From positions 132,308,001 through 132,372,000 of the forward strand of contig OZ024740.1 in assembly GCA_964016885.1 (NCBI GenBank): a stretch of 64,000 bases of DNA, read 5' to 3'. Within the stretch, counting starts at the first letter, position 1. Each line of letters begins with the position of its first letter. Both the position numbers and the translations under genes were made by a program. Positions 11,349 to 37,412 of the stretch are shown here, piece by piece. The stretch is from Eledone cirrhosa (lineage: Eukaryota). The notes beneath the pieces are model-generated. The model was not told the DNA's origin, ran no database searches, and worked only from the letters and a program-made list of their open reading frames with translations.

Positions 11349-11465
11349 AGGTCTGAAGACATGGTGTGTGTGCTTACAGTGTACCTTCGGTTTATGATAA
11401 TATTTGTATATTATTCAAATAGCGAGGTATAGGTAACCCATACACTATAGAAACAATTGTTACCT
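11349..11465 (+). ncRNA. Hammerhead ribozyme type I with ~90-nt stem II
   Basis: AGGU-CUGAAGA (11353)-C-AUGGUGUGUG...CAUACACUAU-A-GAAAC (11450)-AAUU-GUU-ACCU. Stem I has 4 bp, the base of stem II 10 bp, and stem III is the palindrome AACAAUUGUU. Confidence 0.8.
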
Positions 11466-11578
11466 AACCAATTCTAAATACCCGCATTTCCATTTCGTAA
11501 ACTTCTCCATATATATTTATATATATATATTAAGAGAGTAAAACAAAGAATCCTTTAAAACATCAAAAGTTTTTATTA

Positions 11579-11616
11579 GCCGACAATGTTTCGTCCTATT
11601 AAGGACTCATCAGGGC
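11579..11616 (-). ncRNA. Minimal hammerhead ribozyme (inverted copy of 16961-16998)
   Basis: Exact reverse complement of the motif at 16961. Confidence 0.9.
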
Positions 11617-14600
11617 AATCAAAACAACAAGAGGTAATTTCGGCAGATACAAGCCAGAAACTCTGAAGAATATGGAGTTTACATACACTAATGTCTTACA
11701 AAGATATACTATAATAAAAATGAAGATAAAAATAATAAAATTATAATAACTAAGGATGTAGATAACATTAAGAACCATATTACAAATATAGTCCAAAGTC
11801 ACCAACTTAAATCTAAACAAATTTGGTTATATAGAGCAGGAATTATATATAACACAGTATAATACATTATAATAATAATATATCTATACTAACACTGAAA
11901 TTCCAAATCAAAAATCAAAAGGTACAATATATACATGTATATATGTGCGCACACACACACACACACACACACATATTACAATACACATATCTATTTTCTA
12001 TTACACAGAAATTAAGCCCTATTGGAAGTTTGAACATCAAAAATATCAAAAATAAGCATGGTAATAGTGAAAATAATGCTAACACATCCACCCAATATAC
12101 ATGAGGCAATAATTACAAGAAACACTTATAATAAATAATAAACAACAAAATTATATAATACAATACAATATAATAAAGTAGAATATATATAATATAATCT
12201 CCGGTTAATTTACAGAAACAATATAGATGTCACAGTGAAATACAATGATAAATTGTTAACATTATATTAACAATTACCGTAAGCAATATGTACAACATGA
12301 TTCATACTGGGTTACATAATAAATGGGGAAATATCCATCATATAATATAATACAATAATACTCAAAAAAACTATATTGGTACAGGGAACAATTATGATGT
12401 TACAGAAAAAATATGTTGTTACAGAAAAAATATAGACATCTAACATGATATGTAAAGTCTAAATACCATAATGTTACATATTACAATATTAAAATATTAA
12501 AATATTAAAAAATATAAAGTTTAACTATCTTAATATTATATATAATAAACGGTAAGTAATAAGGATCTATATCATAATGTAATATATTTTAAAAATTGGC
12601 ATATAATATATAAATAAATACTTATAATTTCAAGGTTAGTAGACAGACATGTGTTGATGAGTGAACGAAGCCAGACAGTGAGTGGTAAATAAAACAGATA
12701 AATACAATCAACCGGAAATTACAAAACAAAGCAAATGTGTACACACTTAGGCCTCGCGTGCATTAAGAAATTTGGTAAACACCAAGGAAAACGATCATTT
12801 TAAATGACTTCAAACCCTATCTGATAAATTAATATTAAAAATATCAAACCCGTCCGATAAGGTAGTATAAAATTAGCTATAGTCATTAAAGTATATAAAC
12901 TTTAATGTATCGTTACAAATGTTTACAAAAAGGAATAAAATTACACTATCATACACGCAACGATATCTAAAAAACTGACTTAAGTAGAGTTAAGGTAGGC
13001 TAATGGGGGCAGAATTGGCAAAATATATGGAGGGTGCGAAGTGGCATAAAATATATTCGATATACTATAATAAATAATAGAACAGAGCATAAAAGAGGGG
13101 GGGGGGTTAATATAATCATATTCAATCTAGAGGGGTTGACAATAAGTTTATGCGTGCATGGGGGGGGGGGAGGGGGGGATCGATAGATAAATCAGAATAG
13201 ACTTAGACATAAAAATATAAATAGAATTAAAAATAAAAATAAAAATAATGTTAAAATTAAAAATTAAAGTTAATGATAATAAAAGAATATATAAAGATAA
13301 TAACGTGTGTAATCTTATTTATACTAACAAGGTGTAATAGTGAAGACATAGATATGGTACAGTGGCCAAATGATTATGAGAGCTAGAATGAAGAGTCATC
13401 AAAAACCAATGGTAACAATAGTGTTGGCAAACAAAAGAACCCAAACAAAAAACTAAGTAATGGAATATATCTGCTAATGGGTACGATTTGTACTACTAGA
13501 ACATTTGGGTTTATAATAAAAGTAAGAATTAGAAATTGCATGGGGGCAAGAAGAGAATATCTCAGACTTTCTATTCAGTAAGGGTACTGATAGAGCGGTT
13601 AACTTTTTAGATGTGACCTTGGACTTGGCCACTAATAGTTTCAAACCCTTCCATAAGCCTAATGAAATTCTTTCTTATGTTAGCCCCAATTCTAACCACC
13701 CTAAGTCTATGATAAACTCTATAATTAAGGTCGTTTCTAATAGGATTTCCACACTATCTAAAGACATAGGAACTTTTAATGAACATGCGGAGTACTACAA
13801 TAACGCCCTAGCAAATTCAGGTCACTCTAGTAAAATAAATTATAATAATAGTAACTTTAGAAAGTCTCCGATTACTCTTAATAATAATAACATTATATCA
13901 CATAACATGGCTATGAATGTGAGTAGCAAACTTAGTAACCGTAGAACTTATATAGGAGTATCTGAACCCACCCATAAGTTATCCCACCGGACTCGTAATA
14001 ACAAATATAATACCTCTAAGAGACAAGTCGAGCCCCCTGTGCGCTCACGAATTGGTGTTGGTTTGGCTGGATCTTGTTCTAGTAGTGTTGCTCCTACTGA
14101 TCCTATCATTGGCCTTAATCCTCTTGTAGGGATTCTGGACAACAGTGGATCTACTAGAGGTAGAAACTATAATAGGCATAATGTAATTATGGCTGATTCT
14201 ATGAATGCGGCTTCAAATATTCCCGATAGTAACCCTAGTCTCGACGGTGGGACTTTTGATAGAGGTAGGGTCGATAAGAATAAAAATAAAAATAGAAGGC
14301 GATTGAATACTTATTTCAACCCGCCATATAACCAGGATGTATCAACTAATATCCCTAGGTCTTTCTTCACTATCCTGGAGAAAAACTTCCCCCTTCTCAC
14401 AAATACCATGGTATTTTTAATAAAAATGTTATTAAACTATCATTCTCTACCACCCCTAATATTAGTTCTCATTTAGCTAGCACTAATAATAGGAAGATTA
14501 GGGATGGATTCTCCTCTCTGCAGACTAATAGTCTAAATGCATCGGACAATGCTTTACCACCAGAACAGTCCTAATCTAATAGAGGTCCTAAGTGCAATAC

Positions 14601-34375: not shown

Positions 34376-34511
34376 TTATTTTGCGATCGTTTCTAGGATA
34401 TATATGTGTTAGAGTTGGTATGCATATTCTACAGATCTATGTACAATATTCATACAAACTATCAGAGGGAATATACATACCTTCACATATATATGCTGTC
34501 TTCAGAAATAA
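34376..34511 (-). ncRNA. Hammerhead ribozyme, long stem II, cleavage triplet mutated (GCA)
   Basis: Mirror of 37281-37412 but with GCA in place of GUA. Confidence 0.65.
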
Positions 34512-37100
34512 CGATACTTGTTTATTGATAAGAACAAAGATTCAATACAATAGGTCTGTTTGGGAACAGGTTTTGAATTGACCAATCAGGAGATAGTGAG
34601 GGTCAAGATAGTGATATAGAATTAGGAGAACCTTAAATTATGGGTAGAGGAAGGTAGATTTCAGTTTTGGATGGAAAAGAGTATTATGAATGAAGGATTA
34701 CTTTAGGGAAGAAGAAGGTCATATGTTGACCTCAGAAATAATTTGATTTGTTCATTGAATAAAACCTACAAAGATCCAATAATAATGGATTACTTTAGGC
34801 AAGAAGTAGGTCATATGTTGACCTCAGAAATAATTTTATTTGTTCATTGAATAAAACCAACAAAGATCAAATATACTTTGTCTGTTTGGTAAGAGGTTTA
34901 GAATTAACCAATAGAAAGTTAATAATTGGTCAAATGGTAAAATAGTAGTAATTGAAACTTATTTTAGGGGTGAAACTAGGTCAGGTGGTCAGTAGAAGGT
35001 ATACAAGCAGTTGCTGTTATAAAATAGTAATGCCAATACAAATATCTAAGGTGATCAGAGTTTTTAGATAAGGATGTTAGTGAAAAAAATACATCTATGA
35101 AAAGGATATAAAATTAATTTAATTGATGGGTATATTTATATTGATAAAATTATACTAATACATATAGATATGATAAATAAGAGTTAGATGCAGTTGAAAA
35201 GTGCTGTTAAGGATGAGGGGAGATTAAAAGAATATAAAAATGATATATATATATATATATATACATATATATACCTACATATATATACATACATACACAC
35301 ACACATACACACACACATACACACACACACATATATATATATATATATATATATATATATATATATATATATATATATATATATATATATATATATACAC
35401 ATACATACACATACACACACAAATATATACCCATATACATATATATATATATACGCATATACACATGTACATATACATACACACACACACACACAGACAT
35501 ATATATATATATATATATATATATATATATACACACACACACACACACATATACACATATATATATATATATATATATACATATATATATTTTTTTTTAC
35601 ACTCACATACATACACACATACATACATACACACTTATATACACACACATCCACACTTACATATACATATAATTATTGGGGGGTGGGATTAAATTTATTA
35701 GTGGGGAATAGTAAATATATATACTTTTCAAGGAACAGAGTCATAACCTGAAGTTAAACAATATATATGTTTACTTAATGGTATCAGTTTTAGGAGATGA
35801 TATTTGTAAGAAGGAAAGCCAAATTATGTAGTTCATCATTAGTAGAATATTAATTATAGGTTAACTAAAATAAAAATAGTTTATATATTAATTTCTAAGG
35901 TGTATATTAATTAGGCTTTAATATTAATTTGGCTCTCCTTCTTACAAATATCATCTCCTAAAACTGATACCATTAAGTAAACATATATAAGCTTTAACTT
36001 CAGGTTATGACTCTATGTTCCTTGAAACCTATATATATTTACTATTTCCCACTAATAAATTTAATCCCCCTCCCCTAATAATTATATGTATATGTAAGTG
36101 TGGATGTGTGTGTATATAAGTGTGTATGTATGTATGTGTGTATGTATGTGAATGTAAAAAAAATATATATTTGTATATATATATATATATATGTGTATAT
36201 GTGTGTGTGTGTGTATATATATATATATATATATATATATATATATGTCTGTGTGTGTGTGTGTGTGTATGTATATGTACATGTGTATATGCGTATATTA
36301 TATATATATATATATATGTATATGGGTATATATTTGTGTGTGTATGTGTATGTATGTGTATATATATATATATATATATGTGTGTGTATGTGTGTGTGTA
36401 TGTATGTATATATATGTAGGTATATATATGTATATATATATATATATATATCATTTTTATATTCTTTTAATCTCCATTCATCCTTAACAGCACTTTTCAA
36501 CTGCATCTAACTCTTATTTATCATATCTATATGTATTAGTATAACTTTATCAATATAAATATACCCATCAATTAAATTAATTTTATATCCTTTTCATAGA
36601 TGTATTTTTTTCACTAACGTCCTTATCTTAAAACTCTGGTCACCTTAGATATTTGTATTGGCATTACTATTTTATAACAGCAACTGCTTGTATACATTCT
36701 ACTGACCACCTGACCTAGTTTCACCCCTAAAATAAGTTCCAATTACTACTATTTTACCATTTGGCCAATTATTAACTTTCTATTGGTTAATTCTAAACCT
36801 CTTACCAAACAGACAAAATATATTTGATCTTTGTTGGTTTTATTCAATGAACAAATAAAATTATTTCTGAGGTCAACATATGACCTTCTTCTTCCCTAAA
36901 GTAATCCTTCATTCATAATACTCTTTTCCATCCAAAACTGAAATCTACCTTCCTCTACCCATAATTTAAGGTTCTCCTAATTCTATATCACTATCTTGAC
37001 CCTCACTATCTCCTGATTGGTCAATTCAAAACCTGTTCCCAAACAGACCTATTGTATTGAATCTTTGTTCTTATCAATAAACAAGTATCATTATTTCTGA

Positions 37101-37280
37101 CGGATTGGCAGTATCGGTAGAGGGTCGGACGTTTTGCTTTCCAGCATAGTTACGTCCCTTTACGATCTGAGTTCAAATCCCGCCGAGGTTGACTTTGCCT
37201 TTCATCCTTACGGGGTCGACGAAATAAAGTACCAGTAACGCACTGGGTAATTGCTGGCCTTGTGCCTAAAGTAGAAACAA
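37101..37280 (+). mobile_element. SINE family A with 10-bp target-site duplication TTATTTCTGA
   Basis: TSD at 37091-37100 and 37281-37290; the empty site is visible in the opposite arm (~34500-34515). Confidence 0.93.
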
Positions 37281-37412
37281 TTATTTCTGAAGACAGCATA
37301 TATATGTGAAGGTATGTATATTCCCTCTGATAGTTTGTATGAATATTGTACATCTATAGAATATGCATACCAACTCTAACACATATATATCCTAGAAACG
37401 ATCGTAAAATAA
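37281..37412 (+). ncRNA. Hammerhead ribozyme type I, ~100-nt stem II
   Basis: UUAUUU-CUGAAGA (37287)-C-AG(C)AUAUAUAUGUG...CACAUAUAUAU(C)CU-A-GAAAC (37395)-GAUC-GUA-AAAUAA. Confidence 0.82.

Follow-up and report, generated by a model that had tools for sequence, protein, structure and literature searches.

We identified six type I hammerhead ribozyme motifs with an enlarged stem II, closed in each by a C10.1.A11.1 mismatch, in a 64-kb stretch of the Eledone cirrhosa genome (contig OZ024740.1, positions 132,308,001 to 132,372,000; hereafter the window, whose own numbering is used below). Their stem II inserts measure 90, 90, 51, 51, 101 and 105 nucleotides (nt), and they fall into three families, F1, F2 and F3, all of which had been noticed in a first-pass annotation of the window. 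The anatomy can be seen directly: an intact core, C.A as the consensus closing, a compensated long stem II, a palindromic stem III, a mobile-element context and varied closings. The explanation that we favour, with modest confidence, is that F1 and F3 are hammerheads of the pseudo-long terminal repeats (pLTRs) of Penelope-like elements (PLEs) and F2 is a retrozyme-like hammerhead, that all would cut slowly as dimers, and that C.A is one of several tolerated closings of an enlarged stem II and not a special switch.

The F1 hammerhead lies at 11349-11465 (+), with stem I formed by AGGT/ACCT, a core segment at 11353-11359, and C10.1 and A11.1 at 11360 and 11449; it has a 90-nt stem II and a palindromic stem III, and its cut is predicted after 11461 (GUU). 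A second F1 copy, also with a 90-nt insert, occupies 8453-8569 (-) in an inverted 5' pLTR, and the two pLTR arms (8406-8651 and 11267-11512) are 98% alike. The F2 copies, at 33330-33411 (+) and, 556 nt downstream, 33886-33967 (+), have a 51-nt stem II and predicted cuts after 33406 (GUU) and 33962. F3 is represented at 37280-37413 (+), with a 101-nt stem II and a predicted cut after 37406 (GUA), and by an inverted copy at 34376-34511 (-), with a 105-nt stem II. The CUGANGA ... GAAA core and an NUH site are intact in every copy except this last, in which U16.1 has become C, giving GCA at the cut site and probably an inactive motif; the initial claim that all the motifs end in GUH stands for the other five. 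Stem I comprises 4-9 base pairs (bp), stem III is a palindrome and stem II is backed by compensatory changes, in a type I topology with stem I open. Pairing resumes after the mismatch as first described, with 10 bp in F1, with 6 bp, a 7x7 internal loop and 8 bp in F2 (where stem III is an 8-nt palindrome), and with 2 bp, a C.C and then 11 bp in F3. Compared with 200 dinucleotide shuffles each, all six inserts give much more stable predicted folds (z from -4.0 to -5.2).

The canonical consensus of G10.1-C11.1 and a short stem II (Rfam RF00163) is absent from all six motifs, which have C.A and 51-105 nt in its place. Active natural exceptions at 10.1-11.1 have been published, among them U10.1.U11.1 (PMC3088659, PMC7229834), so this departure excludes the label canonical but not the label hammerhead. 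An Rfam scan of the window matched none of the six C.A motifs and reported just a canonical hammerhead pair, at 11575-11619 and 16958-17002, with a score below the gathering threshold; at gathering score, Rfam found nothing in nine loci that include long-stem G-C motifs and short-stem C.A motifs. One published pipeline discards mispairs at 10.1-11.1 (PMC3088659), and the suspicion that standard scans miss these motifs is borne out.

The mismatch is the consensus of its families. An F2 pattern with the closing bases left free matched the genome 6,467 times (control, 0), and the first 100 matches listed were closed by C.A in 97 cases, A.A in two and U-A in one. Loci fetched by BLAST gave C.A in 30 of 30 F1 rows and 19 of 20 F3 rows, with overlapping loci counted twice. 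In an alignment of 20 of the 57 distinct F2 sequences, hand-picked to span subfamilies, 94.8% of cells are paired and 9 of 27 pairs are altered on both sides; none of 500 shuffles scored as high, a control that related sequences can exceed even without structure. Two of these both-sided changes sit in the helix adjoining C.A. For F3 (25 of 43 sequences aligned), 6 of 35 predicted pairs are altered on both sides. Since C.A is kept while neighbouring pairs change on both sides, we conclude from these alignments that it is an inherited family consensus and, as had been proposed, not decay, and that the long stem II is maintained by compensatory change.

Upstream of the F1 hammerhead, an open reading frame (ORF; 8657-10939, +) encodes a Hydra-clade Penelope-like reverse transcriptase (RT) with a C-terminal endonuclease; the window copy has a single in-frame stop (10172-10174) and ends ~416 nt before the hammerhead. 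The ORF contains RWK and DKT and, in most copies, CxCx5C, of which the last C is altered in the window. The F3 element of the window (34502-37100), made of head-to-head inverted 3' fragments, is without an ORF; upstream of the same hammerhead an ORF was found in loci L303, L306 and L310, and F3 ORFs outside the window carry RWR, DKT or EKT, and CxCx5C. RWK, DKT in place of DKG, a CxCx5C linker and a C-terminal endonuclease are marks of Hydra-clade PLEs (PMC8557442), and F1 and F3 also share the layout of that clade, namely a pLTR with a hammerhead, an inverted 5' copy, a tail and a (TA)n target. We conclude, from motifs and layout, that F1 and F3 are the 3' ends of two Hydra-clade PLE families; the likeness of their ORFs to Hydra-1_Obim was judged by eye. 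The F1 ORF has no match in Pfam; a PDB search gave none either, and no relative was found in viral contigs. Contigs of three unlabelled runs include the F1 end, without bearing on starts, ends or expression. An identification with 'missing Naiad ribozymes' was dropped, since F1 and F3 carry C-terminal endonucleases.

F2 is of another kind. Its element at 32897-34150 (+; ends approximate), between (TA)n runs, is a non-coding 556-nt tandem repeat of ~2.2 units with one type I hammerhead per unit, and similar arrays occur at several loci. As a non-coding tandem repeat dispersed in many copies, F2 is retrozyme-like; none of the nearby ORFs listed qualifies as a parent of F2, of the F5 (GAGTC) superfamily or of a CCATGG family. 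The RT regions of F1 and F3 are 44-53% identical. The three families share no flanking DNA, as first noted, but F1 and F3 are thus relatives, and only F2 belongs to a different type of element. Support for F1 and F3 as sisters conflicts between trees, with an SH-aLRT (Shimodaira-Hasegawa-like approximate likelihood ratio test) value of 92 in a quick, unfinished 23-row tree and 0.56 in a 40-row FastTree tree, and so does not decide between one origin and separate origins of their C.A. These trees cover only elements of this genome and metagenome relatives, and the hammerhead label of each row is the nearest downstream motif, with some labels (L325, L189) uncertain. The host genome is 3.0 Gb and microsatellite-rich, and microsatellites dominate the repeat-finder output except for the inverted arms and the 556-nt spacing.

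We searched the genome with the pattern CTGANGAC-N40-70-AGAAAC-N4-GTH, in which stem III is a six-base palindrome, and used the reversed pattern as a control. C.A motifs exceed chance, with 1,957 matches versus 91 for interiors of 40-70 nt and 4,319 versus 225 for 71-101 nt; the count for 9-39 nt (292 versus 516) is uninformative, and from it we used only families visible in the list. The corresponding figures for G-C motifs are 295 versus 28 (9-39 nt), 2,505 versus 27 (40-70 nt) and 789 versus 39 (71-101 nt). With long-stem counts high for both closings (3,294 for G-C and 6,276 for C.A), we conclude that long stems predominate in this class irrespective of the closing pair. Conversely, C.A closes short stems too (14-21 nt), including a 20-nt family that sits after a Hydra-type endonuclease, and look-alike families with 14-nt stems close with G-C, U.U or C.A at equal insert length. 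A relaxed descriptor run over 464 kb (the window and its flanks) gave 43 matches and none on the reversed sequence; the 36 matches in the 400 kb beside the window comprise U.U 11, G-C 7, A-U 6, C.A 4, A.C 3, G.U 2, U-A 2 and A.A 1. All fetched loci together form 42 clusters, of which C.A and G-C lead ten each and C-G none, in a sample biased by the C.A and G-C queries used to fetch the loci. Given long stems with G-C, C.A with short stems, A11.1 opposite A or U, and an F2 architecture unlike that of F1 and F3, we conclude from these counts that stem II length and closing pair are uncoupled and that C.A is one of several closings, with no single C.A subclass. Two further groups illustrate the range of this genome. 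The large F5 superfamily (with a conserved GAGTC ... GAGCTG internal loop; for example L073:1475-1616, L230:1467-1607, L102 and L104), often solo or head-to-head, has a 58-63 nt stem II closed by C.A, A.A, U-A, C.U or G-C, and the sister motifs L297:1980-2144 and L293 have a branched stem II of 83-84 nt, closed by G-C in one and C.A in the other.

Metagenome relatives provide an outside comparison. A profile built from the F1 RT and 30 of its 230 homologues found 77 loci, partly redundant, of which 61 have a hammerhead, giving 56 distinct Hydra-clade motifs: G-C 24, U.U 21, G.U 4, A.C 2, A-U 2, C.A 2 and U.C 1. Both C.A motifs are the two ends of one element, L378. From these counts we conclude that a mismatch at 10.1-11.1 is ordinary for the Hydra clade and that C.A is rare outside this genome. 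The inserts of the 56 motifs are 10-29 nt long and none exceeds 29 nt; in re-examined metagenome loci that lacked a clean short match, no clear long-stem motif was seen. The long arm hence looks typical of the present lineage. The lineage-typical C.A subclass that the first-pass annotation had envisaged finds support as regards the long stems but not as regards a coupling of C.A with them.

The F2 motif offers a possible tie between stem II and stem I. AUUCUC, in the 5' strand of its stem II internal loop, is complementary to GAGAAU directly 5' of stem I, making a candidate pseudoknot in the second copy (GAGAAT 33878-33883 with ATTCTC 33906-33911, +) and, with one G.U, in the first (33322-33327 with 33350-33355, +). 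We compared the 10 bases before stem I with unpaired bases of the 5' arm in 24 clusters with inserts of at least 40 nt, taking one representative per cluster. At least four Watson-Crick pairs can form in 12 of the 24, versus 3 and 4 of 24 for downstream and farther-upstream control segments, and 2,000 shuffles gave a mean of 4.2 clusters and a maximum of 9. Own partners average 4.75 pairs and swapped partners 2.74. Between clusters the pairs are exchanged as GAGAAU/AUUCUC, GAGAAA/UUUCUC, GAGAAG/CUUCUC, GAGUU/AACUC, GAGCG/CGCUC, GAGG/CCUC, GGGC/GCCC and GGAAAA/UUUUCC (forms also given are GAGA/UCUC, GAGU/ACUC and GAGC/GCUC), and the clusters able to form them close with G-C, C.A, A.A, U-A, U.U, A.G or A.C. 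We regard pairing of the stem II internal loop with bases 5' of stem I as a likely candidate for the tertiary contact between the two stems in F2 and 11 other clusters. A pseudoknot considered for F5 (GAATC with GATTT) was rejected, since it can be drawn only by disregarding the F5 helix and does not hold up in a sister subfamily.

In the explanation that we favour, two motifs would pair through their palindrome, forming stem III, and would then cut after GUU or GUA. Stem III is weak in predicted monomers (probability P at most 0.15) and two-copy folds gain ~10 kcal/mol through palindrome pairing, from which we infer action as a dimer, in line with the dimeric hammerheads published for PLEs and retrozymes. 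Being long and stable, stem II would steady the junction, so that 10.1.11.1 could be tolerated as a 1x1 loop stacked under the core; that A is favoured at 11.1 and that C10.1-G11.1 leads no cluster are consistent with such a loop. In F2-type families, the former loop II would now be an internal loop pairing 5' of stem I, a relocated form of the known activating contact. The N7 of G10.1 coordinates a metal ion, and cleavage at GUU is slower than at GUC; C.A together with GUU, as in F1 and F2, would hence be expected to cut slowly. Slow cutting would leave uncut or circular RNA for RT to copy, in keeping with copies that end 45-70 nt beyond the cut site. In total, 39 of 39 F1 and 50 of 50 F3 contexts extend past that site, with (TA)n terminating many of them after a further 45-70 nt, and the 3' ends of F2 cluster ~70 and ~200 nt past it. 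Copies of this shape suggest that the template of RT is RNA that is uncut, multimeric or circular; a comparable case has been reported for a PLE of Anolis, which inserts from uncut RNA and whose hammerhead needs protein (PMC11167929). AATAAA directly follows stem I in most F1 copies (it is altered in the window copy, 11466-11471), and the same holds for several further families; the RNA upstream of the cut would therefore lose its poly(A) signal.

Several results weigh against this explanation. Predicted monomer folds of F1 and of the F3 motif at 37280-37413 are without stem I (P 0.01), and so are the two-copy folds; the consensus fold of the F3 alignment puts the junction in the wrong place. 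A break within a few bases of the F2 cut site occurs in 1 of 94 contexts, leaving genomic breaks unsupported as a trace of cleavage. As to the pseudoknot, the search found it in 0 of 23 F1 and 0 of 47 F3 sequences, its pairs are conserved within F2 but both-sided changes number 0 of 5, and the 24 clusters are not independent, so that a few matches may be chance. Finally, the partner of C10.1 is mostly A, with 1,957 matches versus 470 for C, G and T together (control 152, the list containing some misparsed rows); this preference, with C.A leading ten of the 42 clusters, leaves room for specific selection.

A bolder version, which we consider less likely than not, holds that the motifs form a distinct and abundant lineage class of well over 10,000 copies, missed by Rfam. 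Here loop II would have turned into an internal loop within an arm of 40-115 nt and the pseudoknot brace would free G10.1-C11.1. Replacement of this pair, several times over, by C.A or another N.A mismatch would then determine how fast retrozymes and PLEs cut.

Selection for C.A itself, as a protonated A+.C wobble or a recognition mark that would, with the long stem II, define a tuned or protein-binding subclass, seems unlikely to us. The preference of C10.1 for A would fit it, as would the persistence of C.A across F2 subfamilies while the next pairs swap and its recurrence in F1, F2, F3, F6, short-stem families and a metagenome element that stands apart on the tree. Against it, A11.1 lies opposite A, U or G in 3,259 matches (control 173) versus 1,957 opposite C; by eye, most rows listed belong to two hammerhead families and close with A.A or U-A, and some are misparsed or coding sequence of a long interspersed nuclear element (LINE). 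Sister subfamilies, moreover, exchange C.A, A.A, U-A, C.U and G-C, and the closing pair is uncoupled from stem II length. Less likely still is that the motifs no longer cut and that the fold serves as a structural handle (for binding of RT or a nuclease, or for 3' end formation next to AATAAA) with a hammerhead-like core. The sequence retained beyond the cut site, the poor prediction of stem I in F1 and F3 and the AATAAA after stem I in most F1 copies are all compatible with a handle, and cleavage is dispensable for in vitro insertion of the Anolis PLE; yet that Anolis motif cuts with protein (PMC11167929), related mismatch-closed hammerheads cut (PMC3088659, PMC7229834), and dozens of diverged clusters retain the core, the NUH site, stem I and the palindrome. 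We consider it improbable that the numbering is off by one, with the next pair as the true 10.1-11.1, one additional base after A9 and one additional A before G12. Minimal hammerheads of PLEs do typically have an additional base between A9 and 10.1 (PMC4209133), and in F2 and part of the F3 subfamilies C.A is followed by a G-C pair, but that next pair is A-U in F1 and most F3 copies and C-G or U-A in other C.A clusters, and look-alike families swap C.A for G-C or U.U at equal insert length.

If the slow, dimeric hammerheads that we favour do cut, hammerhead censuses of invertebrate genomes would undercount by large numbers, because models and descriptors presume that stem II is short and 10.1-11.1 paired. 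In this genome, the pair that is most conserved outside the core has also been varied by nature, as in a mutagenesis series, both where a pseudoknot is likely and where it is not, and the role of G10.1-C11.1, as well as why PLEs keep weak ribozymes, could be tested with a few short RNAs. By itself, C.A would add little to the U.U variant already known; the interest lies mainly in the long arm with its likely pseudoknot.

The window contains more than a dozen hammerhead-like motifs in all. Among those of other families, the two noted at first for their closings are present: a short hammerhead with a 12-nt stem II and U.U (at 57093) at 57081-57118 (+), with an inverted copy at ~55647 (-), and one with a 38-nt stem II and A.G (at ~52150) at 52090-52165 (-). 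The U.U pair (55451-57282), in which the first base of stem III is G instead of C, encloses an RT fragment of another Penelope-like type (56577-57116, -). A canonical G10.1-C11.1 hammerhead with a 14-nt stem II (16961-17002, +; inverted copy 11575-11619, -) belongs to a second Hydra-type element, a 5.5-kb inverted repeat (11529-17048) directly after the F1 3' end with ORF pieces at 13526-15087. Further motifs, some degenerate, lie at 39601 (-), 41943 (+), 42738 (-), 42888 (+), 7406 (+) and 32554 (-). Directly before the F3 core, a dispersed repeat of ~185 nt (37090-37291; other copies near 5218, 7791, 20322, 29887 and 55116), bordered by a duplication of 11 nt into which the first bases of the core fall, shortens stem I and leaves the hammerhead whole; the same junction occurs in several other F3 loci. 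The C.C (or Y.C) at the fourth stem II pair is kept in F3 (37297/37391) and in several short-stem families of this genome (L002:2274, L125:2964, L078:858). Unrelated to the hammerheads are LINE-type RT fragments at 20612-24029 and 60040-62273 (Pfam RVT_1 at 22177-23166 and 61449-62273). The window also has a tandem 261-nt repeat (1642-2253) with tRNA-like Rfam matches at 1774-1844 and 2035-2105 (-), where ARAGORN calls none.

The closest known relatives are the Hydra-clade PLE hammerheads (Craig et al. 2021, PMC8557442), which are likewise type I motifs in a 3' pLTR with a short palindromic stem III, (TA)n insertion and a common 10.1-11.1 mismatch. They differ in having a stem II of 3-8 bp with loops of at most 10 nt, as against 90-116 nt and a C.A consensus here; the longest, in the spike-moss element PLE-X1_sMoe, has a 34-nt loop and is flagged as deviating. 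The first-pass annotation had allowed that the variant might already be common in the literature, and this is half true: U.U is found in 14 of 25 Hydra families of that study, and C.A appears once in its PLE tables, in the algal element PLE-X1_cBra (File S2). Metazoan PLE minimal hammerheads (Cervera and De la Pena 2014, PMC4209133) resemble ours in pLTR site, dimer design, a somewhat enlarged helix II and low expected activity; their consensus, in contrast, retains G10.1-C11.1 plus one extra base, and the 56 motifs of Figure S3 there include U.U only in Hydra, no C.A and loops of at most 9 nt. Diminished stem III, PLE association and dimer cleavage are shared with the small dimeric PLE variants of Lunse, Weinberg and Breaker (2017, via PMC6765202). 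Passages of PMC9901934 and PMC13725137 gave nothing on 10.1-11.1, and a literature search that covered few subscription papers, with the alignments of Lunse 2017 outside it, found no stems II of 50-115 nt and no internal-loop pseudoknot in animal mobile elements.

F2 resembles metazoan non-LTR (non-long terminal repeat) retrozymes (Cervera and De la Pena 2020, PMC7229834; Li et al. 2026, 10.64898/2026.07.22.740005) in its tandem, non-coding units, each with a single type I hammerhead, and the axolotl HHR_Amex2, which has U.U at the base of helix II, is present in ~60,000 copies and cuts as a dimer (PMC7229834). F2 differs in its 556-nt unit, its C.A, its 51-nt stem II and a stem I contact that is likely made by the internal and not the terminal loop. 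Pseudoknotted hammerheads (Perreault et al. 2011, PMC3088659) are comparable in that loop II base-pairs with the side of stem I, and in having natural 10.1-11.1 mismatches, but are mostly microbial with a very short stem II, whereas here the contact would be made in mobile elements of an animal and by an internal loop within a long stem. From these comparisons, what looks new is the long stem II and its likely pseudoknot; a mismatch at 10.1-11.1 had already been published.

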